Of a stretch of DNA of 64,000 nt, positions 7,968 through 60,274 are shown in pieces. The DNA is taken from positions 10,102 through 74,101 of the forward strand of contig JAQVLT010000006.1 of NCBI GenBank assembly GCA_028704015.1. Reading direction: 5' to 3'. Every line of letters begins with the position of its first letter. Position 1 is the first letter of the stretch. A program made the translations under genes and the position numbers. The DNA is from Patescibacteria group bacterium. GTDB lineage: Bacteria > Patescibacteriota > Patescibacteriia > Patescibacteriales > JAQVLT01. The notes under the pieces were generated by a model that searched no databases, was not told the DNA's origin, and worked only from the letters and a program-made list of their open reading frames with translations.

Positions 7968-8027
7968 AAGTAATAAAAAATGCTATTGAAATTTGAAACT
8001 TTAAAATTAAAATTTTATTTAAATTTT

Positions 8028-9854
8028 TTATTTTTGGCTCTCTTTAACGTAAGTAACTACTTCATCGCCTTCGTTCAAGCCTTCAAGTATCTCAATCATG
8101 CCGCTATCGCCCTTAAGTCCGGTCTTTACCGGCACCTCAATTAATTTACCATTTTTTAAAACCCGAGCTAATTTTGTTTTTACGCCGCTGCCGTTGCCGT
8201 TTTTCTCAATTATTGCGCGCGCCGGAGCGAAAAGCGCATTTTCTTTCTTATCTGTAATAATCACCGCGTTAGCCGTCATTCCCGGTTTAATATTATTATA
8301 ATATTCCTCGCTAACTTTTCCGTCATGAACCAGCCTAATTGTCACTTTGTAATAAACCACGTCTTGAATTACGGTTTCCGCTGGCTCAACAAAAGCAACT
8401 TCTCCGGAAAACTTAACATCTTCTCCAAAAGCATCCAATGTTATCTCGGATAAATCGCCAACTTTGACTTTGTAAATATCGGCTTCAGAAATATCAATTT
8501 TTACTTCATAATCATTATTACCAACCATCGCCAACACATTTTCCGTCGCATTAACTTGCTCGCCTATTTTATAATTTGATTCAGTCACCACGCCGTCTAT
8601 CGGCGCTTTAATAATGCTGTCTTCAACTTGTTTTTTGGCAATTTCCCATGCCGCCTCCGCTTGCGTTAATTGCGCTTGATACAAAGAAATATCCTGGCTT
8701 CTGGGCGAAGCTTCTGTTTGATTTAATTGCGCCTTAGCTAAATCCCAAGCTTTCAAGGCGCCATCAACTTGAGTTTGCGCGGTAGACAATTGTTTCTCGC
8801 CGCTTTTTTCCGCTGTCGTTAAACTATTTTTAGCGGTTTTAATAGCATCATCAAGCGCCAAAATAGCATCAGTCAAATTTTGTTTGGCAGACTGCACCGC
8901 TGCTATTGCCGTATTAATACCGTTCTGATTTGTGCTAATTGTAGTTTTATAAACATCAAGTTCTGTTTGCAAAAAAGCGGAAGAAGTAATGCTTTTTTCC
9001 AAAGATTTATAGCAATAATTCAAAGCCTCATAAGTTTTATTTAGCAAAATCACGCAGTCATTAGCGGCTTGATTAATACTTGCTTCGTTTATATTTATTT
9101 CAGCTTTTGCCAGGCTGGATTGTGCCGGACTAATTAATGCCTTAGCGTCATTATAGCTTAATTTGGTGTTAGCTAAATATGAAGTGTCTAAAACACTTAA
9201 AGTATCCTCTGCGTCCGTATCTTTTAAAATAGTATTGATATTATCAAGAGCTGCGTTTGCTTCGTCAATTTTTAGTTCAATAGTAGTTAAAGCATTAGTT
9301 TTTTTATTTTCTACTGCTTGGCGATAAGAACTTTTAATTGGCGATGTGGATTCTAAATCGGCTAATTTATTTTTAGCTTGTTCAATGCTTTCACTAACTG
9401 TTTTTTCAGTTTTATCTTGCTCATCCAAGGCGGAGTAATAAGCGCTTTTTGCCTTGGAAACACTGGTTTGGCTAACTCCCAACTCCTCTACCGTCGCGCC
9501 GGCAAAAAGTTTATTTAAATTTGCCTGAGCAACCAAATAGTTTGCATAAGCCTCTTTCTCTTTTAAAACATACGAACGGTTATCCAACTCGGCTAAAATT
9601 TGATCTTTTATTACCTTGTCACCAATATTAACTGACAACTTCGCCACTTTACCGCTGACTAAAAAATTTAAATCTATTTTTTCCGCCGCCTTAATTGAGC
9701 CGGTCTCACTAACGCTTTGGATTAATTCTCCTTTTTTAACTTTTTCGGTAGTATACTCCTCCTGCGGTTTTTTATTAAAAATAAAATAACCCGCAATAAT
9801 AACTATCAATGCTACCAATATAATTATTATAATTTTTTTCTTTGTTTTTATCAT
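8028..9854 (-). CDS. HlyD/MacA-family periplasmic adaptor with long coiled-coil insert
   Basis: 608 aa. N-terminal TM, lipoyl-like segment VSGKVAKLSVNIGDKV, and a long Ala/Gln/Lys-rich coiled coil. It lies in an operon with MacB-type genes. Confidence 0.8.
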   Translation of the reverse strand: MIKTKKKIIIIILVALIVIIAGYFIFNKKPQEEYTTEKVKKGELIQSVSETGSIKAAEKIDLNFLVSGKVAKLSVNIGDKVIKDQILAELDNRSYVLKEKEAYANYLVAQANLNKLFAGATVEELGVSQTSVSKAKSAYYSALDEQDKTEKTVSESIEQAKNKLADLESTSPIKSSYRQAVENKKTNALTTIELKIDEANAALDNINTILKDTDAEDTLSVLDTSYLANTKLSYNDAKALISPAQSSLAKAEININEASINQAANDCVILLNKTYEALNYCYKSLEKSITSSAFLQTELDVYKTTISTNQNGINTAIAAVQSAKQNLTDAILALDDAIKTAKNSLTTAEKSGEKQLSTAQTQVDGALKAWDLAKAQLNQTEASPRSQDISLYQAQLTQAEAAWEIAKKQVEDSIIKAPIDGVVTESNYKIGEQVNATENVLAMVGNNDYEVKIDISEADIYKVKVGDLSEITLDAFGEDVKFSGEVAFVEPAETVIQDVVYYKVTIRLVHDGKVSEEYYNNIKPGMTANAVIITDKKENALFAPARAIIEKNGNGSGVKTKLARVLKNGKLIEVPVKTGLKGDSGMIEILEGLNEGDEVVTYVKESQK

Positions 9855-10249
9855 ATTGCTATTTTTTCTTTATTATTTATAACTTTTTTAAATCTATAAA
9901 TAAAATCATCAATACTTAATTCATTTTTGATAAAATAATATTTAACACCCAAATTTGCCCCCATGCTTCGGCTATCATTGTCGCTTAAACTGGTGAAAAT
10001 AAAAACCGGAATAGCGGAAGTTTCCAAATCTTCACGCAACGCCTTCGCCATTTTAAAGCCATCAATTTTGGGAAGAATCAAGTCCAAGATTATATAATTT
10101 GGCTTAAACTCTTTTATTTCATATAATGCATTTTCTACCGCCTCACTGCCGTTATTTATTTCCACTTCAAAACCCTCCAGGCTTAATTTCGCCTGCAAAG
10201 CATACAAAATATTAGCGTCATCTTCAATAATGAATACTTTTTTGCGCAT
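9851..10249 (-). CDS. single-domain response regulator (CheY-like receiver)
   Basis: 132 aa with the EDD...DLILP acidic pocket pattern. It overlaps the adaptor gene by 4 nt. Confidence 0.85.
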   Translation of the reverse strand: MRKKVFIIEDDANILYALQAKLSLEGFEVEINNGSEAVENALYEIKEFKPNYIILDLILPKIDGFKMAKALREDLETSAIPVFIFTSLSDNDSRSMGANLGVKYYFIKNELSIDDFIYRFKKVINNKEKIAI

Positions 10250-27672: not shown

Positions 27673-27820
27673 GCAAAATGGCCTTAAAAATCTAAAAATC
27701 TAAAAATCTAAAAAATTTTAGCTAACATTAAATAAAATATAAACTAAAAAATATTAGTAAATTTGACAAAAAAATCTCTCCGCCGATTTATACACAGCCG
27801 ATCTAACATAATAAAATGTA

Positions 27821-27955
27821 ATTGTTAATTGTTAATTGTTAATTGTTAATTGTTAATTGTTAATTGTTAATTGTTAATTGTTAATTGTTAATTGTTAATT
27901 GTTAATTGTTAATTGTTAATTGTTAATTGTTAATTGTTAATTGTTCTCTTACCAC
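27821..27955. repeat. tandem octamer AATTGTTA x about 17
   Basis: Perfect head-to-tail repeats read directly. They overlap the last codons and the stop of the Mur-ligase gene (..LTINN*). Confidence 0.95.
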
Positions 27956-31078: not shown

Positions 31079-31897
31079 TTACAACGGACTTTTGATATTT
31101 TTTAAACTTGGTTTTGTCACCTGCGTATAAATTTGAGTAGTCCTGATATTGCAATGACCCAAGAGCTCCTGCACATATCTCACGTCTGTGCCGTTTTCTA
31201 AAAGATGCGTAGCAAAACTATGACGCAATGAATGGAAAGTTGCGTCTTTTTTTATTTTAGCTTTGGTCAAGGCATTTTCAAAAATCTTCTGCGCCGTTCT
31301 GTCGGTTAGCTTGCCGCCTTGATTACTTTCAAAAACCAAATCTTCGCCTCGCCTTCCCGCCAAATAATTTTTTAATTCTTCCCGCAATTTCTCCGGCAGA
31401 AGCGTAACCCGATCTTTTTTTCCTTTAGCTTCTTTCAAGTGAATAAAATTATTGGCGAAATCGACATCTTTTACTTTTAAATTTATGGCCTCGCTCACTC
31501 GGAAGCCAGCACCGTAAGATAAGGCAACCAATAGTTTGTGTTTGCCATTGCTTATCGCACCAATCACTTCTTCAATTTCCTCGCGCGACAAAACCACCGG
31601 CAATTTTTTGGAAGTCTTGGCAAATTTTAAATCAATCGCCACCGCGCTTTTAAAAATTTCCCGGTAAAGATGTTTAATGGCGTTGAGATGAAGATTTATC
31701 GTCTGCGACGACAAACCGCGTTCTTGTTTTTTCAGCAAATATTTTTTTATCAACTCAATCTCCGGATCTTTTTTGACTACTTTAATAAATTTAAAATAAT
31801 CAACCAAGCAACCAAGGTAGCTCTTAATCGTTTGCCGGCTGTAATTCCGCAGTTTTAATTCATTCTCAATTTTTACCAACAACTCTTTAAATTCCAT
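31079..31897 (-). CDS. tyrosine recombinase, integron-integrase-like but lacking the IntI-specific insertion
   Basis: 272 aa. Box I GAGFRVSEAINLKVKDVDF, KGKKDR, box II HSLRHSFATHLLENGTDVRYVQELLGHCNIRTTQIYTQV (R..H-x-x-R..H..Y). N-terminal SAM-like RNYSRQTIKSYL. Confidence 0.9.
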   Translation of the reverse strand: MEFKELLVKIENELKLRNYSRQTIKSYLGCLVDYFKFIKVVKKDPEIELIKKYLLKKQERGLSSQTINLHLNAIKHLYREIFKSAVAIDLKFAKTSKKLPVVLSREEIEEVIGAISNGKHKLLVALSYGAGFRVSEAINLKVKDVDFANNFIHLKEAKGKKDRVTLLPEKLREELKNYLAGRRGEDLVFESNQGGKLTDRTAQKIFENALTKAKIKKDATFHSLRHSFATHLLENGTDVRYVQELLGHCNIRTTQIYTQVTKPSLKNIKSPL

Positions 31898-32007
31898 ATT
31901 ATTATGTTATACTTAACAACAAGAGTGCTGTTACTAACAAAATACCAAAATTTCGCATAATATACAACGACAAGTAGTTAATTAACATAAAATTCGTATA
32001 AAAACTA

Positions 32008-32186
32008 GTTCCGCCGAAATCGCTCGCTTACGCTCGCTCCTTTTCGGCGGAACGGCTTCGGAATCCTTCCTCGTCCCGCTCAGTCGCTCGCTCACGCTCG
32101 CGACATCGCGGAACTCGGAATACGCGAAATTGCCTTTCGTCCCGAAGCGTCGGGACTCCGGCAACTTCGCTTATTCCGAAGCCGTT
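32008..32186 (+). repeat. 179-bp GC-rich ORF-less element, copy E1 (at the attI-like junction)
   Basis: GTTCCGCCGAAA...TTTCGGCGGAAC hairpin, then a GGCTTCGGAAT...ATTCCGAAGCC long stem, bounded by GTT on both sides. Identical to E2 and E3 by eye. Confidence 0.95.
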
Positions 32187-32290
32187 ATACGCCATAATAA
32201 AAAGCCTCTTTTATTTTTAGTAATAATTTTGGCAATTTATTTTGTGAGGTCGACGTATAATTTTTTAAGTAATATTAATTAACAAAAAAT

Positions 32291-32581: not shown

Positions 32582-32631
32582 GATAAATTAAATTGCCAAA
32601 ATTATTTTATTAATAGAGGCTTTTTATTACA

Positions 32632-32833
32632 GCGTATAACAACGCATATCTGGCTACGGAAATTGTGCATTAATAGAAACCTTGAGGTGGCACAATTTCC
32701 TCCGCCCAAATCCCGCACTAATTTTTGTGGGATTTGGATGGAGTTAAGCATTTAAAGAAGTTTGCATTAATTTATTGCTTGTTTAAGAAACAACGAAAAA
32801 TTAGCGCGGGACTTCAGATGATGCGTAAACGTT
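32632..32833 (+). other. attC-like site 1
   Basis: GCGTATAAC-AA-CGCATATCTGG ... CTTCAGATGATGCG-TAAAC-GTT. Confidence 0.65.
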
Positions 32834-33009
32834 CCGCCGAAATCGCTCGCTTACGCTCGCTCCTTTTCGGCGGAACGGCTTCGGAATCCTTCCTCGTCCC
32901 GCTCAGTCGCTCGCTCACGCTCGCGACATCGCGGAACTCGGAATACGCGAAATTGCCTTTCGTCCCGAAGCGTCGGGACTCCGGCAACTTCGCTTATTCC
33001 GAAGCCGTT
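32831..33009 (+). repeat. 179-bp element copy E2
   Basis: Identical to E1 by eye. It starts at the GTT of attC-like site 1. Confidence 0.95.
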
Positions 33010-33089
33010 AGGCGACATATTTTAAAAACGATTCCAAAAACTTTTTTTATCGCCTTCGGCGATTTGGGGGCGAAAACTTTTTTTATTTT

Positions 33090-33098
33090 TGTTATAAT
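33090..33098 (+). promoter_or_regulatory. extended -10 element TGTTATAAT, 6 nt before ATG 33105 (possible leaderless transcript)
   Basis: Sequence tttTGTTATAATgaatacATG. No convincing -35. Confidence 0.4.
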
Positions 33099-33104
33099 GA
33101 ATAC

Positions 33105-33335
33105 ATGAATACTAAACCTTACTACAAATACAAAGATTTTTCTCTTTTTCACGGCAACTGCCTTGATATTTTAGCTAAAATTCCAGAAAATTCGGTTGAT
33201 ATGATCTTCGCCGATCCACCCTACCTACTCTCAAATGGCGGTTTTACCTGTCATGCTGGTCAAATGGTTAGCGTAAATAAAGGCCAGTGGGATGTAAGCA
33301 ACGGCCTAAAGAAAGATTTTGAATTTCATCTATGA
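33105..33335 (+). pseudogene. 5' fragment of a DpnA-like (beta-class, DPPY) N6-adenine DNA methyltransferase
   Basis: 76 aa. TKPYYKYKDF...SVDMIFADPPYLLSNGGF...VSVNKGQWD closely parallels the N-terminus of M2.DpnII (DpnA) as I recall it. It stops after about 25 percent of the expected length, and its TGA overlaps the next ATG. Confidence 0.7.
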
Positions 33336-34099
33336 AAATAATTTTTAATACAGCTCTTGCAAATAAATATACTAGCTTATCTCAAAAAGCCAGAGTTTTA
33401 ACTGAAACATGGGTTGACAATGAAATATTTTGTCCGAGTTGTGGGACAAATATTGAAAATTATGAAAATAATCGTCCAGTAGCTGATTTTTATTGCCCAA
33501 ATTGCAAAGAGGAATATGAATTAAAAAGCAAAAAAGATGGTTTGTCTAAAAAAATTGTTGATGGAGCTTATAAAACAATGCTTGAGAGATTAAAAAGCAA
33601 TAATAATCCGAACTTTTTTTTCTTAAATTACAATCCGATAAAATATGAGGTTTTAAACTTCTTGGTTATCCCAAAACATTTTTTTGTCCCTGATATCATC
33701 GAGAGAAGAAAACCATTATCAGAAAACGCTAGACGAGCTGGCTGGATAGGTTGTAATATCTTGCTTCAAGCTATTCCGCAAAGCGGAAAAATATTTTATA
33801 TAAAAAATGGAAATATTGAGAGCAAAGAGGATGTCTTAAAAAATTGGCAAAAAACTTTATTTTTAAGAGACTCAGACAAAGCTGAATTAAAAGGCTGGAT
33901 TTTAGATATAATGAGTTGTATTGATAAATTGAATAAAATAGAATTCTCTCTCGATGAAATTTATAATTTTGAAAACATTTTAAGCAAAAAACATCCGGAA
34001 AATAGACACATCAAAGATAAAATAAGGCAGCAACTACAATTTCTGAGAGACAAGGGGTATTTGAAATTTTTAGACAGAGGAAAATATAAATTAGTTTAA
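33332..34099 (+). CDS. DpnI-like methyl-directed (type IIM) restriction endonuclease
   Basis: 255 aa, collinear with remembered DpnI. SQKARVLTETWV, CPSC...NNRPVADFYCPNC zinc ribbon, EYELKSKK (D-EXK), NNPNFFFL, ARRAGWIGCNI, and the C-terminal wH IRQQLQFLRDKGYL..GRGKYKL. Confidence 0.8.
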   Translation: MKIIFNTALANKYTSLSQKARVLTETWVDNEIFCPSCGTNIENYENNRPVADFYCPNCKEEYELKSKKDGLSKKIVDGAYKTMLERLKSNNNPNFFFLNYNPIKYEVLNFLVIPKHFFVPDIIERRKPLSENARRAGWIGCNILLQAIPQSGKIFYIKNGNIESKEDVLKNWQKTLFLRDSDKAELKGWILDIMSCIDKLNKIEFSLDEIYNFENILSKKHPENRHIKDKIRQQLQFLRDKGYLKFLDRGKYKLV

Positions 34100-34301
34100 A
34101 ATTATGGAAATCAACATCAGCCCTTTACTGGCAAAAAATATTTTACGAATTAATTTTCTCACAAGAATAAAAATTATGTGCCGCGGATATAGTGAAGATA
34201 AAAAAAATTTCACCGAGCTTGTTTGGCCAGACGACAAAGATCTTGATTTTTACAACAAGAAAGATTATCCGCAATTTCAACTTTGGTTTATTTGAATTTA
34301 A

Positions 34302-35144
34302 ATGAAATATTCTATGGAAACTAATCATATTGCTATTTTTAAAGGCAAATCAATTAGAAAAACTATTTTTCATAACGAGTGGTGGTTTTCGGTAATTGAC
34401 GTTGTCGAAGCTCTAACCGGTACGGGCAGACCTAGAAAATATTGGAATGATTTAAAGAAAAAGCTACTAAGCGAAGGATTTTTTGAAGTGTCCGAAAAAA
34501 TCGGACAGTTTAAATTAATGGCTTCAGACGGCAAAATAAGAGAAACTGACTGCGCCGATACCGAGACAATGTTTCGTATTATTCAATCTATTCCATCACC
34601 AAACGCCGAACCATTTAAGCGCTGGCTAGCTAAAGTTGGTTACGAAAGAACCCAAGAAATTGAGAATCCTGAGCTGGGAATTAAAAGAACAAAGACTCTT
34701 TACAAACTTAAAGGATATTCTGAGGACTGGATTGAAAAGCGCATGCGTGGTATTACTATACGTGAAGAATGGACCGATGAATGGAAAAAACGAGGCGTTA
34801 AGGAAAATATCGAGTTTGCTATCTTAACCGCCGAAATATCAAAAGCAACTTTCGGCATGACACCAAGCCAATACAAAAAATTTAAAGGCTTAAAACGAGA
34901 AAATTTGCGAGACCACATGGACGACCTTGAATTAATTTTTTCTATGCTCGGCGAAGCTTCAACTACAAAGATTACTAGAAGCAAAAATGCAAATGGTTTT
35001 ATCGAGAATAAAACTGCCGCCCAGAAAGGCGGAAAAATCGCGGGTGATGCCAGGCGAAAACTTGAGGTTGAATCCGGCGACAAGGTTATTACTAGAAAAA
35101 ATTATTTAATAGGCGCTCAAAATCTTAAAAAACTAAAAAAATAA
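34302..35144 (+). CDS. Bro-N domain protein (antirepressor/DinD-like)
   Basis: 280 aa with the N-terminus IAIFKGKSIRKTIFHNEWWFSVIDVVEAL, typical of Bro-N. Confidence 0.65.
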   Translation: MKYSMETNHIAIFKGKSIRKTIFHNEWWFSVIDVVEALTGTGRPRKYWNDLKKKLLSEGFFEVSEKIGQFKLMASDGKIRETDCADTETMFRIIQSIPSPNAEPFKRWLAKVGYERTQEIENPELGIKRTKTLYKLKGYSEDWIEKRMRGITIREEWTDEWKKRGVKENIEFAILTAEISKATFGMTPSQYKKFKGLKRENLRDHMDDLELIFSMLGEASTTKITRSKNANGFIENKTAAQKGGKIAGDARRKLEVESGDKVITRKNYLIGAQNLKKLKK

Positions 35145-35250
35145 AAAAATTTTCGCCCCAAATCTAATTCGCTTCGCGAATTATAAAAAAAGTTTTTGGA
35201 ATCGTTTTTAAAATACGCTAAAGCCACGCTGCGCTCTCGCTATCGCTCGG

Positions 35251-35348
35251 GTCGCCTAACAACCGATATCCGGTTCGGGGCTCAGCTCGCCCCTCTCCCA
35301 TATTTTTGCTCCCGTTGGTCGCAAAAACATCGGATATCGCGAAACGTT
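35251..35348 (+). other. attC-like site 2
   Basis: GTCGCCTAAC-AA-CCGATATCCGG ... CATCGGATATCG-CGAAAC-GTT. Its R'' is the exact reverse complement of GTTAGGCGAC at 33007. Confidence 0.7.
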
Positions 35349-35524
35349 CCGCCGAAATCGCTCGCTTACGCTCGCTCCTTTTCGGCGGAACGGCTTCGGA
35401 ATCCTTCCTCGTCCCGCTCAGTCGCTCGCTCACGCTCGCGACATCGCGGAACTCGGAATACGCGAAATTGCCTTTCGTCCCGAAGCGTCGGGACTCCGGC
35501 AACTTCGCTTATTCCGAAGCCGTT
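35346..35524 (+). repeat. 179-bp element copy E3
   Basis: Identical to E1 by eye. Confidence 0.95.
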
Positions 35525-35544: not shown

Positions 35545-35922
35545 ATGAATACGGAGCAATTGAAAAACAACAAATATTTTCTAGGATGCTATACAGACCC
35601 CGGAGCGTTTAACGGGTGGCAAATTGGGTCATTTTTTCCTGAAAACCATCCGTGCAGAACTGACATGGTTGAATTATTGTATAAAGAGCATGCCGCCGGA
35701 GATACAGAAAAGCCCCATTACCACAAACAAAAAATTGAATTAATAATCATGCTCGAGGGACAAGCCAAGTATAACGTAAACGGAAAAGATGTTCTGTTAG
35801 AAAACAGCAATTTTTTATTTGTAGATACAAACAATGTTATTTACGGGGAATTTCTAAAGCCTTCGAAAATATTTGTAGTGCACACACCTAGCCTGCCTAA
35901 GGATAAAACTTTAATTGAGTAG
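35545..35922 (+). CDS. cupin-fold protein (cassette C3)
   Basis: 125 aa with the HYH..E..LEG cupin-like motif PHYHKQKIELIIMLEG. Confidence 0.55.
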   Translation: MNTEQLKNNKYFLGCYTDPGAFNGWQIGSFFPENHPCRTDMVELLYKEHAAGDTEKPHYHKQKIELIIMLEGQAKYNVNGKDVLLENSNFLFVDTNNVIYGEFLKPSKIFVVHTPSLPKDKTLIE

Positions 35923-35938
35923 AAATTTTTTTAAAACA

Positions 35939-36058
35939 TCATATAACAAAGAATATCTGGTTCAAGAATTTTTCTTGTTAATGTATAAGGAGTAAAAATT
36001 CTTTCACCCAAATTTTATTTCACTACGTTCAATAAAACTTCAGATATTCTTATACGTT
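35939..36058 (+). other. attC-like site 3
   Basis: TCATATAAC-AAA-GAATATCTGG ... TTCAGATATTC-TTATAC-GTT. Confidence 0.65.
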
Positions 36059-36232
36059 CCGCCGAAATCGCTCGCTTACGCTCGCTCCTTTTCGGCGGAA
36101 CGGCTTCGGAATCCTTCCTCGTCCCGCTCAGTCGCTCGCAAGCTCGCGACATCGCGGAACTCGGAATACGCGAAATTGCCTTTCGTCCCGAAGCGTCGGG
36201 ACTCCGGCAACTTCGCTTATTCCGAAGCCGTT
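36056..36232 (+). repeat. 177-bp element copy E4 (short variant GCTCGCAAGCTCGC)
   Basis: Same as E1 except for a 2-nt shorter inner hairpin. Confidence 0.95.
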
Positions 36233-36376
36233 AGCTGAAATATATATTTTTCTTTTGCCCTGCGGGGCAACTCTTAAAAAGAATTCAATTTTTGTTTTTT
36301 TATTAATTAGAAAGGGGTAATAAGTGTTTTCTTCGCTACGCTACAAAAACGATTTATTAATTAATCCAAAAAATAT

Positions 36377-39811: not shown

Positions 39812-39830
39812 TTAATTAAAATGCTATAAT

Positions 39831-39896
39831 GAGTTTTAGATTATGGGCATTCACCCCTAACCCCTCTGCCCAAAATCTAAAACGAAAAAAACAAAA
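39831..39896 (+). repeat. conserved hairpin with C-rich loop (TTTTAGATTaTGGGCA-TTCACCCCTAACCCCTC-TGCCCAAAATCTAAAA), copy 1
   Basis: A near-identical copy lies at 47763-47825. Both sit after the last ORF of a cassette. Confidence 0.85.
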
Positions 39897-39954
39897 CTGA
39901 ATTCTTTTTGCGAGTAATCCCAATAGCTATCGGGATTAAAGAAAAATATATACA

Positions 39955-40054
39955 TCAGCTAACACGGCATATCCGGTTGCGGCTTTTATACAAAAGCCTA
40001 CACCCACATTTGCCTCCGCTACGCTACGGCAAACATCAGATATGCCGAAACGTT
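39955..40054 (+). other. attC-like site 4
   Basis: TCAGCTAAC-AC-GGCATATCCGG ... CATCAGATATGCC-GAAAC-GTT. Its R'' is the reverse complement of GTTAGCTGA at 36230. Confidence 0.7.
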
Positions 40055-40228
40055 CCGCCGAAATCGCTCGCTTACGCTCGCTCCTTTTCGGCGGAACGGC
40101 TTCGGAATCCTTCCTCGTCCCGCTCAGTCGCTCGCAAGCTCGCGACATCGCGGAACTCGGAATACGCGAAATTGCCTTTCGTCCCGAAGCGTCGGGACTC
40201 CGGCAACTTCGCTTATTCCGAAGCCGTT
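40052..40228 (+). repeat. 177-bp element copy E5 (short variant)
   Basis: Identical to E4 by eye. Confidence 0.95.
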
Positions 40229-40420
40229 ATACGCAATTCAAAAAATATTTTTCTTTTAATAAGGAATTTTGACAGGCTTTTTAAAAAGGGGAATAAATTT
40301 GTTTTTTTATTTATTAGAAAGGGGTAATATTGTGTTTTTTCTGCTTTTGGAGGCGCAGAAAAAACGATTTACTTACAAGGGGAAAACGGGTACTATACAA
40401 TTACTTATTAGGAATAAACT

Positions 40421-47611: not shown

Positions 47612-47762
47612 CCGTTAGTTTACAATTCCATCGGAGCTGTGTAAAAACAAAAGTACGTTTAATAGTATCACCAAAAAGTTTTAGGGATCAAACCCAAATA
47701 AAAGACAAAAATTCCCTCCCCTTAAACCCCTTCCTTTTTGCCTTTTATTTGAAAAGAATAAG

Positions 47763-47825
47763 GAGTTTTAGATTTTGGGCATTCACCCCTAACCCCTCTG
47801 CCCAAAATCCAAAACAAAAAACAAA
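47763..47825 (+). repeat. conserved hairpin with C-rich loop, copy 2
   Basis: Matches 39831-39896. It is preceded by a second AT-stem/C-rich-loop hairpin at about 47697-47755. Confidence 0.85.
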
Positions 47826-47879
47826 TTTATTATTAAGTAGCCTATCAAAATATTATTTTATTTAAAATATTTTTGAACA

Positions 47880-48005
47880 GCGTATAACACGGCATAATCT
47901 GGTTCCAGAATTTTTCATTAACAGTTAATAATAAGGAGTAAAAAATTCTTACACCCATATTTGCCTCCGCTACGCTACGGCAAACATCAGATATGCCGAT
48001 ACGTT
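47880..48005 (+). other. attC-like site 5
   Basis: GCGTATAAC-AC-GGCATAATCTGG ... CATCAGATATGCC-GATAC-GTT. Its R'' is the reverse complement of GTTATACGC at 40226. Confidence 0.7.
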
Positions 48006-48181
48006 CCGCCGAAATCGCTCGCTTACGCTCGCTCCTTTTCGGCGGAACGGCTTCGGAATCCTTCCTCGTCCCGCTCAGTCGCTCGCTCACGCTCGCGACA
48101 TCGCGGAACTCGGAATACGCGAAATTGCCTTTCGTCCCGAAGCGTCGGGACTCCGGCAACTTCGCTTATCCCGAAGCCGTT
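48003..48181 (+). repeat. 179-bp element copy E6
   Basis: As E1 with one substitution (TTATCCCGAAG). Confidence 0.95.
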
Positions 48182-48543: not shown

Positions 48544-48595
48544 TCACTTAACACGCAATAAGCGACATTAAAACAATCGCTTATTGCGGGACGTT
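48544..48595 (+). other. attC-like site 6 (compact, no 179-bp element)
   Basis: TCACTTAAC-AC-GCAATAAGCGA-CATTAAAACAA-TCGCTTATTGC-GGGAC-GTT. Confidence 0.75.
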
Positions 48596-48660
48596 ATCGG
48601 AATTGCTCTTTTACAAAATACTTTTTAGGGGCTACATAACACGAAAAAAAGGAGGACAAG

Positions 48661-48903: not shown

Positions 48904-48999
48904 CAGGGCTCCTTGGGGACATAAGCATGTCCCCGCCCCTAAAAAGCATTTTGTATTTTGGCTAATCGCCAAAAGGCTATCGCCTAAAAGAGCAATACA

Positions 49000-49121
49000 T
49001 CCGATAACACGGCATATCCAGCTCGGACTTTTCCGAAAGTCCTCACGCAAATTTTTGTTTCTCTTTACTTTATAATAAATAAAGGTGGAGAAACAAAATC
49101 TTCGGATGATGCCGAAACGTT
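49000..49121 (+). other. attC-like site 7
   Basis: TCCGATAAC-AC-GGCATATCC ... GGATGATGCC-GAAAC-GTT. Its R'' is the reverse complement of GTTATCGGA at 48593. Confidence 0.7.
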
Positions 49122-49315
49122 CCGCCGAAATCGCTCGCTTACGCCTGCCTACCGGCAGGCAGGCTCGCTCTTTTTCGGCGGAACGGCTTCGGAATTCTTC
49201 CTCGTCCCGCTCAGTCGCTCGCAAGCTCGCGACATCGCGTAACTCGGAATAAGCGAAATTGCCTTTCGTCCCGAAGCGTCGGGACTCCGGCAACTTCGCT
49301 TATTCCGAAGCCGTT
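49119..49315 (+). repeat. 197-bp element copy E7 (divergent; carries a nested GC-rich palindrome)
   Basis: Short variant with several substitutions. CCTGCCTACCGGCAGGCAGG (49143-49164) is inserted in the first hairpin loop. Confidence 0.95.
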
Positions 49316-49349
49316 GTACGAAATATCATTCACCTTTAATTCGTAAAAT

Positions 49350-49769
49350 ATGAAAACTGCCTACATATTCGGGCCAATTCATTTATTCGGACAAGATTAT
49401 TTACCCGTCTATAAACATCTCATGAAACTTTGTGAGCCGTATTTTGATAAAGTCATTGGCACTTATCCCGATTTTTGGGATAGTAAAGAAACTCCGCGTG
49501 AATTTTATGACCGCACCTACCAAGTTATTACTAAATGCCAGCTTTTTATCGGCGAGGTCTCAAGTCCTTCGATGGGTGTTGGCATGGAATTTCAAATGGC
49601 GCAGGAAAACAATATCCCATGTATAGCGCTTTGCAAAAAAGGAGTTGAGCCGTCGATGATGATCGCTGGCATACCTTGTACTAAAAAAGTTGTTTATTAT
49701 GAAGACTTCGCCGACTTGTCCGAACAAATGAATGAGATATTAAAAGATACGAGCTGGTTAAACGGGTGA
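49350..49769 (+). CDS. nucleoside 2-deoxyribosyltransferase-like protein (cassette C8)
   Basis: 139 aa with the SMGVGMEFQMA nucleophile-loop pattern. It differs at 2 aa from the 59818-60237 copy. Confidence 0.6.
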   Translation: MKTAYIFGPIHLFGQDYLPVYKHLMKLCEPYFDKVIGTYPDFWDSKETPREFYDRTYQVITKCQLFIGEVSSPSMGVGMEFQMAQENNIPCIALCKKGVEPSMMIAGIPCTKKVVYYEDFADLSEQMNEILKDTSWLNG

Positions 49770-49777
49770 ACGATACA

Positions 49778-49828
49778 TCGTACAACACGCGATATCCAAA
49801 ATTAGAACTTCAAATATGCCGAAACGTT
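49778..49828 (+). other. attC-like site 8 (compact)
   Basis: TCGTACAAC-AC-GCGATATCC-AAAATTAGAAC-TTCAAATATGCC-GAAAC-GTT. Confidence 0.7.
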
Positions 49829-50518: not shown

Positions 50519-50686
50519 TCACCTAACACCGCGATAAGCGGCTACAGAAAAGTTTCTTAATTAATATAATAATGAGTAAACTTTTCTTCCGGCCCAAATT
50601 TTGCAGATGAATAATAATTATAATAATGTATCTGCAAAACTTCGCTTATTCCGAAGCCGTTAAAACATCGCATACGCCGAAACGTT
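50519..50686 (+). other. attC-like site 9 (compound: two GTT ends, contains the 3' 25 nt of the 179-bp element)
   Basis: TCACCTAAC-AC-CGCGATAAGCGG ... ACTTCGCTTATTCCGAAGCC-GTTAAAAC-ATCGCATACGCC-GAAAC-GTT. Confidence 0.6.
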
Positions 50687-51446: not shown

Positions 51447-51533
51447 CCACATAACACGGCTTAAACGGAAATTTCTTACAAAAATTAACTAAATGCTCGG
51501 CTAACGCCTCGCACTTCGTTAAGCCGAAACGTT
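51447..51533 (+). other. attC-like site 10
   Basis: CCACATAAC-AC-GGCTTAAACGG ... CGTTAAGCC-GAAAC-GTT. Confidence 0.7.
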
Positions 51534-59680: not shown

Positions 59681-60274
59681 AACGTATCCAAATATCTGAA
59701 GTTTGTTGGAGTGAAACGAAAGCAAATTTGGGTTGAAAAAGTTTTTCACTCCTTAATTTAAAAATCTAATAAGGCAAAACTTTTGAGCCAGCTATTTGGT
59801 GTTGTACGATGTATCGTTCACCCGTTTAACCAGCTCGTATCTTTTAATATCTCATTCATTTGTTCGGACAAGTCGGCGAAGTCTTCATAATAAACAACTT
59901 TTTTAGTACAAGGTATGCCAGCGATCATCATCGACGGCTCAACTCCTTTTTTGCAAAGCGCTATACATGGGATATTGTTTTCCTGCGCCATTTGAAATTC
60001 CATGCCAACGCCCATTGAAGGACTCGAGACCTCGCCGATAAAAAGCTGGCATTTAGTAATAACTTGGTAGGTACGGTCATAAAATTCACGCGGAGTTTCC
60101 TTGCTATCCCAAAAATCGGGGTAAGTACCAATGACTTTATCAAAATACGGCTCACAAAGTTTCATGAGCTGTTTATAGACGGGCAAATAATCTTGCCCGA
60201 ACAAATGAATTGGTCCAAATACGTAGGCAATTTTCATAATTTACGGATTAAGGGTGAATGATATTTCGTACAAC
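59681..60274 (-). mobile_element. orphan integron-type cassette (NDT-like gene plus its own attC-like site) inserted between core genes
   Basis: Minus strand reads G|TTGTACGAA...CDS...TCGTACAAC-AC-CAAATAGCTGG...CTTCAGATATTTGG-ATAC-GTT. Homology to array cassette C8 begins exactly at GTT. Confidence 0.7.
59818..60237 (-). CDS. nucleoside 2-deoxyribosyltransferase-like protein (inverted duplicate of 49350-49769)
   Basis: 139 aa, differing from 49350-49769 at 2 residues. The 3' half of the gene is identical at the DNA level by eye. Confidence 0.6.
   Translation of the reverse strand: MKIAYVFGPIHLFGQDYLPVYKQLMKLCEPYFDKVIGTYPDFWDSKETPREFYDRTYQVITKCQLFIGEVSSPSMGVGMEFQMAQENNIPCIALCKKGVEPSMMIAGIPCTKKVVYYEDFADLSEQMNEILKDTSWLNG

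Follow-up and report, generated by a model that had tools for sequence, protein, structure and literature searches.

Introduction

Integrons, the closest described systems, combine a unidirectional cassette array with a divergent tyrosine recombinase gene and an attI-like junction. Their cassettes meet in the layout R''(..AAC)–L''...L'–R'(GTT..), the first bases of a cassette complement its own R'', the bottom strand of the sites folds better, secondary sites harbor solitary cassettes, and the cargo is adaptive or defence-related. We analyzed an integron-like locus from a Patescibacteria group bacterium that shares these features, with a cargo including DpnI, Shedu, and a methyltransferase-containing cluster. 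The locus lies in a 64,000-nt stretch (the window) of contig JAQVLT010000006.1 (assembly GCA_028704015.1, forward-strand positions 10,102 to 74,101), and most of its cassettes end in long inverted repeats, or arms, that are the subject of this work. Unlike integrons, it has a recombinase without the IntI-specific domain, R'/R'' pairing of 25–110 bp as opposed to 4–12 nt in a class 1 control, a fixed 2-nt mismatch at positions 10–11 of that pairing, multi-hairpin attC cores to which a conserved 177-nt element is often appended, and conserved frame sequence on both sides of the cargo. Some of its cassettes also contain multiple genes (up to 7.6 kb), and several have apparent promoter-like elements of their own (unverified, recognized by eye).

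Other known systems resemble the locus in part. In Vibrio VCR-type (Vibrio cholerae repeat) sedentary chromosomal integrons, the repeat conservation lies downstream of the gene only. These arrays likewise place near-identical recombination sites on unrelated cargo, implying local cassette construction, whereas the conserved frame here lies on both sides of the cargo and is self-complementary. Val et al. 2005 reportedly described XerCD integrating phage CTX-phi through a folded single-stranded attP(+) hairpin. The likeness lies in an Xer-family recombinase without the IntI insertion and in a long folded hairpin of single-stranded DNA (ssDNA), with unpaired positions in its stem, that mimics a duplex site; CTX-phi, however, is a phage genome that integrates at dif through one site type, whereas here cassette arrays carry a different stem in each cassette. 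Terminal inverted repeat (TIR) transposons, miniature inverted-repeat transposable elements (MITEs), and foldback elements also bracket a mobile segment with inverted repeats. In contrast to TIR transposons and MITEs, the repeats here vary between cassettes of one array and their ends coincide with GTT/AAC boxes of the tyrosine recombinase type; profile searches found no transposase among the cargo proteins. Finally, the single-strand origins and promoters of rolling-circle plasmids, filamentous phages, and conjugative leading regions are long imperfect hairpins that form only in ssDNA and present a duplex to host enzymes. The predicted arm stem is a similar long imperfect hairpin, although priming or transcription from it would be speculative.

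We found no description of integron-like cassette arrays in Patescibacteria or the wider Candidate Phyla Radiation (CPR) in the literature. Here, we document the cognate complementarity of the arms, their conserved geometry, their spread across CPR, their absence from a class 1 integron, their predicted energetics, and the conservation of the cassette frames. We put the chances at about even that the arms serve as the outer stem of a recombination site made of folded, probably single-stranded, DNA and built on conserved, reusable cassette frames.

Cognate Arms at the Cassette Ends

The locus occupies window positions 31079–52340 and contains an array of 11 cassettes (C1–C11), in which every cargo open reading frame (ORF) lies on the plus strand, facing the recombinase gene on the minus strand. 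We fixed the cassette ends independently of the arms, at the G of G|TT after a junction and the C of ...AAC before the attC core, and then made local alignments of each cassette's initial 130 nt against the reverse-complemented terminal 130 nt of all cassettes. Eight of the 11 cassettes have, after G|TT, the reverse complement of their own sequence before ...AAC, with cognate scores of 33.8 (C1), 42.0 (C2), 18.0 (C3), 28.8 (C4), 29.5 (C5), 21.5 (C7), 17.8 (C8), and 19.5 (C9); the score for C6, 11.5, is marginal. The 110 noncognate pairs had a mean of 8.4, a standard deviation of 1.3, and a maximum of 12.0, so that the arms score 7–26 standard deviations above them. Comparison of these cognate scores (17.8–42) with the noncognate background (8.4 ± 1.3) bears out the cassette-specific inverted repeats proposed in an initial annotation of this DNA.

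Chance matching between AT-rich, low-complexity cassette ends might be suspected, as the region has a G+C content of only ~36% and lenient alignments over-extend into A/T runs. This explanation fails because the cognate scores lie far above those of random pairs of cassette ends, and the pattern is replicated at 66 of 98 validated sites elsewhere (see below). We therefore regard chance as vanishingly improbable.

All arms were mapped on the plus strand, and in the array they span ~20–110 bases. The left arm of C1 (32184–32243) consists of R' GTTATACGCCAT and its extension, and the right arm (32585–32640) of the extension and R'' ACAGCGTATAAC; a repeat finder paired 32184–32213 with 32611–32640 (30 nt, 90%) and 32222–32243 with 32585–32606, in agreement with the alignment. 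In C2, the left arm (33007–33090) includes its own small hairpin, CGCCTTCGGCG, and the right arm (35137–35260) includes the hairpin AATTCGCTTCGCGAATT and has its paired block separated from R'' GTCGCCTAAC by a 34-nt insert; here, the repeat finder returned 33018–33050 and 35183–35215 (33 nt, 100%). The arms of C3 (35522–35544 and 35925–35947, found in the same positions by the repeat finder) fit tightly around the gene, the left one lying directly against the ATG at 35545 and the right one starting right behind the stop codon at 35920–35922. The left arm of C4 (36230–36320) comprises a first block, the hairpin TTGCCCTGCGGGGCAA, a second block, and a distal AGAAAGGGGTAATAAGTG motif, and the right arm (39826–39963) comprises a conserved hairpin (39826–39889) and the arm's own hairpin, TAATCCCAATAGCTATCGGGATTA; the repeat finder paired 36230–36255 with 39938–39963 and 36270–36300 with 39885–39915. 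C5 has a left arm of ~100 nt (40226–40325) and a right arm at 47758–47888, of which 47792–47888 is paired and 47758–47821 is a second copy of the conserved hairpin. The arms of C7 lie at 48593–48632 and 48935–49008, the latter with a 31-nt insert (repeat finder: 48612–48632 and 48935–48955), and those of C8 at 49313–49340 and 49757–49786. In C9 (49826–49848 and 50505–50527), the variable R-box positions are mismatched and the extension is paired.

The initial annotation had placed the arms of C1, C2, C3, C4, and C7 correctly to within a few bases. It had also recognized arms in C5, although at ~20 nt rather than the ~100 nt found here, had described the C2 pairing without the 34-nt insertion before GTCGCCTAAC, and had not listed the arms of C8 and C9. 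Toward the distal end of the array (C6, C10, and C11), the arms weaken, which fits arms that are maintained only while cassettes remain mobile.

Anatomy and Register of the Arms

With the G of GTT taken as position 1, the 9-bp R box covers positions 1–9. In a profile of 64 cassettes, drawn from cassettes selected for pairing, positions 10 and 11 are almost never complementary, with AA of R' opposite CA of R'' in 55, and positions 12–22 are paired at 92–99%. This last segment is represented by 54 distinct 11-mers and is perfectly complementary within 43 of the 64 cassettes; because it is diverse and yet complementary within cassettes, the arms are not low-complexity matches. In-register pairing falls off past about position 25. 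Beyond position 11, the paired length has a median of 48 nt and a maximum of 90 nt, both set somewhat too high by the lenient alignment. Past the in-register stretch, both arms of many cassettes contain a small GC hairpin, at matching places and with differing sequences, followed by a second paired block; once annealed, such arms would form a four-way junction with a hairpin in each arm.

These hairpins could also belong to boundary elements that act on double-stranded DNA, each arm being an inward-facing terminator, insulator, or protein site and the two arms being alike by job, not by pairing. Many arms do read inward, from either end, as an A/T tract, a small GC hairpin, and a T-rich block, the left-arm hairpin at 33050–33073 scores as terminator-like, and −10-like elements are repeatedly preceded by the second paired block (TTTGGGGCTATTTTTT or TTTTGGCAATTTATTT). 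A shared job, however, needs no exact match within a cassette alongside difference from all other cassettes of the array, and positions 12–22 are both the most diverse and the best paired. Moreover, promoter and terminator consensus scans of the array gave counts near the shuffled expectation, such matches being no commoner there than in shuffled sequence. We consider boundary elements quite improbable.

The R box behaves differently from the extension. Its variable bases draw on a small repertoire of 24 five-mers, and in 12 of the 64 cassettes they are mismatched beside a perfect extension, a combination that one crossover, always at G|TT, would not predict. Cassettes seem to exchange R boxes with one another, and the crossover, as judged from these 12 cases, would not always fall at G|TT. 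A possible explanation would involve a second exchange point at a distance of ~7 nt and a heteroduplex overlap like that of classical tyrosine recombination. Bases 4–8 of the R box are often noncomplementary to the cassette's own R'', as in C6 (48179), C9 (49826), and C10 (50684) of the window and in loci L119, L124, L132, L137, L151, and L186. We also examined by eye whether the variable bases could be part of the upstream attC, with a crossover after position 8, and rejected this possibility, as they match neither the preceding nor the following R''.

Distribution across Patescibacteria and a Class 1 Control

The same arm design occurs beside homologous recombinases in loci of Paceibacteria, Moranbacteria, Saccharibacteria, Magasanikbacteria, Peregrinibacteria, and Wolfebacteria. 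A long-range inverted-repeat scan anchored on GTT...AAC detected cassette-specific arms beside the recombinase in L008, L010, L012, L013, L014, L023, L034, and L057, and a scan of metagenomes with the R''–L'' consensus yielded 120 further contigs. On genome and metagenome contigs, we validated 108 attC cores by L''/L' pairing, 98 of which had enough upstream sequence to be testable. For 66 of these 98, we found an upstream partner scoring at least 16, against 11.5 ± 2.0 in a reversed-sequence null. More than half of the partnered cores (36 of the 66) top every null score, and 55 alignments begin precisely at the GTT of an R' box.

In a collection of species-representative genomes, many metagenome-derived contigs stop within a few hundred bases upstream of the recombinase gene (L003, L005, L006, L009, L011, L014, L016, and others), and a Patescibacteria metagenome-assembled genome that matches the window, GCA_028707515.1, breaks within the array. 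These breaks suggest that repeat-rich arrays routinely disrupt assemblies, and such arrays are thus probably under-reported in metagenome-assembled genomes.

As a control, we scored one class 1 integron, on plasmid NZ_CP041734.1 (blaVIM-4, aac(6')-Il, dfrA1, aadA1, and smr), in identical fashion. Its cognate scores were 6–12, with perfect complementarity from GTT over only 11, 12, 7, 4, and 12 nt. Because pairing in this control covers only 4–12 nt, the long extension is not general to integron cassettes, and the earlier proposal that the arms exceed the canonical R'/R'' pairing of attC holds against it.

Predicted Folding and a Proposed Role of the Arms

We folded the joined cassette ends with DNA parameters. 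Compared with the same attC joined to the arm of a neighboring cassette, the cognate arm adds 10–32 kcal/mol in C1–C5, C7, and C8, and ~0 to 7 kcal/mol in C6, C9, and C10. The predicted ssDNA structure is that anticipated in the initial annotation, a single long stem that closes the junction with GTT/AAC buried inside. When 1.1-kb single-stranded stretches were folded in array context, the minimum free energy structure paired the cognate arms over the entire cassette in C1, C3, C7, C8, and C9.

Viewed as a whole, the site points toward the bottom strand, like the sites of integrons. Of 94 distinct attC cores, 79 fold more stably on the bottom (antisense) strand; about half of the difference of 1.8 kcal/mol is due to base composition, and the bottom-strand excess over composition-matched shuffles has p = 1.6e-6. 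On this strand, the conserved mismatch at positions 10–11 becomes a T.G wobble and a T.T mismatch, and 8 of 20 small hairpins of the arms have loops of the G..A type, compared with 0 of 20 on the top strand (a small, nonindependent sample).

These strand data bear on the possibility that the arms clamp RNA, pairing in read-through transcripts and directing RNase III processing of a polycistronic mRNA or protecting its ends. An mRNA clamp had been proposed in the initial annotation. The arms do bracket coding regions closely, abutting the start and stop codons in C3, all cargo ORFs lie on one strand, the arm folds are stable with RNA parameters, and the arms alone have no strand bias. The sense transcript, however, corresponds to the less stable strand for both the cores and the conserved 10–11 mismatch, the top strand shows no excess of G.U-compatible mismatches, and the G..A-type loops of the small hairpins are confined to the bottom strand. 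Several cassettes also have −10-like elements downstream of the left arm (TGTTATAAT in C2; TATAAT in C1 and in a family of cassettes with shared arms; recognized by eye and unverified), in which case the cassette's own transcript would lack that arm, and ORF-less hairpin cassettes retain the same stems. The antisense preference of the cores thus leaves the mRNA clamp unsupported; like boundary elements, we consider it less likely, and on the whole improbable.

Our preferred explanation is the outer stem of a folded recombination site. Each cassette would be built on a palindromic frame, with R' and the left arm at its 5' end and the right arm and R'' at its 3' end, followed by an attC core of the form A–L''...L'–AWAC. 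In a single-stranded cassette, or one excised as a circle, the left arm would anneal to the right one and continue the 9-bp R box across the fixed 2-nt mismatch by a further 15–100 bp. This outer stem would keep the weak, AT-rich R box in register, let a cassette's own ends outcompete neighboring ends, and offer the site as a near-perfect duplex to a recombinase without the IntI helix used for single-stranded attC. In the context of the array, pairing would loop out the whole cassette and join its two flanking attC cores. We infer that such pairing takes place in vivo, in ssDNA, and promotes recombination.

Several observations weigh against this explanation. C10 and C11 are complete cassettes in which cognate alignment detected no inverted repeat (scores of 8.0 and 9.0), and about one-third of the validated sites elsewhere have no detectable partner, although many of those contigs are truncated. 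The selection of the 64 profiled cassettes for pairing counts in the same direction. Without positions 1–11, the arms have no strand bias (37 versus 29, p = 0.35), the apparent bias of whole arms being attributable to the conserved 10–11 mismatch; arm mismatches are balanced between G.T and A.C (78 versus 71), an uninformative comparison inflated by over-extension into A/T runs. The extension is thereby silent both on the folding strand and on DNA versus RNA. Furthermore, a cassette of 4–8 kb is unlikely to become single-stranded over its full length within the chromosome, and copying or repair, not functional selection, could be what keeps the arms near-perfect.

Shared Frames and Empty Cassettes

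The initial annotation had described the arms as private to each cassette. This is so within one array but not across genomes, where identical arms and cores enclose unrelated proteins. The arm pair GTTATGTGAAAT–AGCCAGAAATTTCT...TTTTGGCAATTTATTT occurs in L023, L057, L110, and L173, as well as in L115 and L159. The cargo proteins of the first four (216, 153, 282, and 172 aa, respectively) have no detectable similarity to one another, whereas the attC cores of L023, L057, L110, L115, and L173 are mostly 83–93% identical (77% for the lowest pair). C1 of the window is a relative of the GTTATGTGAAAT–AGCCAGAAATTTCT frame with a differing first block. Likewise, L008, L012, and L025 contain the long C4 and C5 arms, together with the hairpin of loop TTCACCCCTAACCCCTC, around other cargo, and differences in the first block are mirrored in both arms.

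Two further elements accompany these frames. A conserved long hairpin with loop TTCACCCCTAACCCCTC stands at the 3' end of several multi-gene cassettes (39826–39889 and 47758–47821), and a matching 5' leader (36290–36375 and 40290–40370) consists of AGAAAGGGGTAATAAGTG, a GTTTTC...GAAAAC hairpin, and then AACGATTTAT. Both recur with different cargo in distant CPR lineages (L008, L012, and L025). Judging from its sequence, the leader may contain a short upstream ORF that ends in a stop codon overlapping the main ATG.

Cassettes that consist of a stem and a short loop without an ORF are common, with lengths of ~40, 49, and 112 nt (L133, L150, L177, L185, L012, L090, L091, L102, and L105). In addition, the Wolfebacteria locus L012 (CP011209.1) contains, at 7985–8447 in plus-strand coordinates, an opposite-strand gene within the loop of an attC-core hairpin with 24-nt stems that are 96% complementary, which indicates that genes can occupy hairpin loops besides the main cassette stem. 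Shared arms around unrelated cargo, ORF-less cassettes, and this loop gene together imply that palindromic frames persist while their cargo changes.

The same observations support the strongest rival to the outer-stem explanation, namely that the arms are relics of cassette construction with little or no present function, left when an ORF-less palindromic cassette received a gene in its loop or when a frame had its cargo replaced. Four cassettes that share an R box, two arm blocks, and cores of 83–93% identity around dissimilar proteins are what such a history would leave, as are the ORF-less hairpin cassettes of ~40, 49, and 112 nt and the L012 gene between 24-nt stems. A functionless relic should, however, decay as in C10 and C11, whereas positions 12–22 are diverse and yet perfectly paired in two-thirds of the profiled cassettes, and the fixed 2-nt mismatch and fixed register point to a recognized structure. 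Construction of this kind explains the origin of the arms and can coexist with function, so that it competes with an outer stem only in claiming that there is no function; in that form we consider it unlikely.

Signs of Cassette Movement

A solitary second copy of C8, with both arms, lies outside the array on the minus strand (59801–60274). The two copies are ~95% identical from GTT to AAC plus AC and unrelated beyond, and they have different cores, that of the array copy being a short hybrid. Including its core, an intact 115-nt attC core, the solitary copy spans 59683–60274, between housekeeping-type genes, and is inserted at ...TTCAGA|GTT; no flanking duplication accompanies it. It resembles a secondary-site insertion.

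The C8 copies prompted us to consider the GTT...AAC body alone as the mobile unit. This idea was weakened by L119 and L156, which share one cassette whose cargo is 94% identical and whose downstream core is 91% identical, with unrelated upstream flanks. Here the core travels with the body, and homology that extends over the body and downstream core but not the upstream flank fits an integron-type unit. L119 and L156 differ in precisely the variable bases of the R box.

The Recombinase

The gene divergent from the array (31079–31897, minus strand) encodes a 272-aa Xer-type tyrosine recombinase (Pfam Phage_integrase, 1e-42), which, from its sequence and position, is presumed to serve as the cassette integrase. 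It scores 218.9 against the NCBIfam XerA/integron integrase model, just below the cutoff of 220, and 216 against TIGR02249 (IntI), whose cutoff is 265, with the match split in two pieces. Alignment to VchIntIA (2a3v) is also in two pieces and skips ~35 residues (~212–243, the IntI-specific domain), and the protein is colinear with archaeal XerA (4a8e). The additional IntI-specific domain (I2 helix near patch III) that is required of integrons sensu stricto is thus missing in the 2a3v alignment, and we call the locus integron-like rather than a canonical integron for this reason. In PMC7790495, the IntI insertion is said to have allowed the shift from double-stranded to single-stranded substrates. 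Previously described archaeal integrons have a canonical IntI (PMC9668308), and a classification of tyrosine recombinases includes an Xer-related "Cand" subgroup of candidate phyla to which no cassette arrays are assigned (PMC8138268).

The family is large and well conserved, with more than 7000 homologues at E < 1e-30. The best 120 of these are 68–86% identical and ~273 aa long. Homologues are annotated as XerD or as "site-specific tyrosine recombinase/integron integrase" and come from Parcubacteria, Moranbacteria, Pacebacteria, and their relatives. By eye, with no systematic dif search made, we recognized no dif-like 11–6–11 site at the junctions, and the double-stranded junction ATATGCCGAAAC|GTTAnnnGAAAT is palindromic only loosely.

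Array Layout and Cargo

The array adjoins the recombinase gene, is divergent from it, and starts at an attI-like junction (...CGTATAAAAACTA|GTT, 31990–32010, plus strand, from sequence reading), as in integrons. Related loci have TTCGCATATAAACGA|GTT at the equivalent site beside the recombinase gene, and the first R' box lies immediately upstream of that gene in L004, L008, L010, L012, L013, L014, L023, L034, and L057. The R' box at the cassette 5' end has the consensus GTTnnnnGAAAT. Each junction consists, in order, of R'' (consensus ACATCnnnnAAC), A, L'' (nnnnATATCYGG), a variable hairpin or a pair of them, L' (CRGATATnnnn), AWAC, and the GTT of the next R', so that the attC boxes are asymmetric (1 nt versus 4 nt). 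This integron-type attC layout (R''–L''...L'–R', AAC/GTT) is present at 11 window junctions and in the 108 validated cores elsewhere. The core at 35261–35345 (A, L'', variable hairpins, L', AWAC) is a typical example; the others, also on the plus strand, lie at 32641–32830, 35948–36055, 39964–40051, 47889–48002, 48553–48592, 49009–49118, 49787–49825, 50528–50683, and 51456–51530.

Between the attC core and the next cassette, many junctions contain a GC-rich element of 177 nt, as at 35346–35522 on the plus strand (G|TTCCGCCGAAA...CCGAAGCCG|TT). It is nearly identical at seven junctions (32008–32184, 32831–33007, 35346–35522, 36056–36230, 40052–40226, 48003–48179, and 49119–49313), with a fragment ending at 50659 and no copies at the distal junctions. 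The element starts at G|TTCCGCCGAAA, has a 12-bp stem of its own that ends in CGGCGGAAC and a long hairpin GGCTTCGGAAT...ATTCCGAAGCC, and ends before G|TT. In sequence it looks like an ORF-less mini-cassette. The Wolfebacteria locus L012 has an element of equal architecture and different sequence.

Profile searches identified DpnI, a Bro-N protein, a cupin, a trypsin-like protease with a Shedu SduA protein, and DUF218 among the cargo. One 7.6-kb cassette carries an EcoRI-type methyltransferase, DUF2130, a GmrSD/HNH nuclease, an AAA ATPase, and a subtilase; this methyltransferase-containing cluster looks defence-related. The first ORF of C2 (33105–33335, 76 aa) resembles, by eye, the N-terminal stub of a DNA methyltransferase with a FADPPY motif; it has no Pfam match and stops right at the start of the DpnI gene.

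An Rfam scan returned no match to attC sites, and its sole match over 27–53 kb, in E-value mode, was a sub-threshold glmS ribozyme (25.4 bits against a gathering score of 37) at 39966–40143 on the minus strand. This match overlaps an attC core and a 177-nt element and is most likely due to chance. Outside the array, ~18 tandem copies of the 7-nt unit TAATTGT occupy an intergenic stretch (27819–27951) upstream of a Mur ligase gene.

Implications

As read from its sequence, the locus is a variant of the integron kind that stands outside the integron family as defined by its integrase. A broader possibility, which we think somewhat less likely true than false, is that it represents a widespread and previously undescribed CPR cassette system parallel to integrons. 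Such a system would pair an Xer-type recombinase without the IntI helix with a long, frame-specific stem, and its frames would be reusable shells loaded with unrelated genes, for example into ORF-less hairpin loops. The cargo of the arrays described here includes DpnI, Shedu, and further defence-like genes, although the host genomes are tiny.

Two questions become approachable in these loci. The first is how a tyrosine recombinase acts on folded single-stranded sites without the IntI-specific helix, for which the long duplex of the site may compensate. The second is how cassettes are made, as identical self-complementary frames around unrelated genes and empty hairpin cassettes provide sequence intermediates. 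If the parallel system is real, CPR would retain visible intermediates of cassette birth, a process that is unsolved for integrons.

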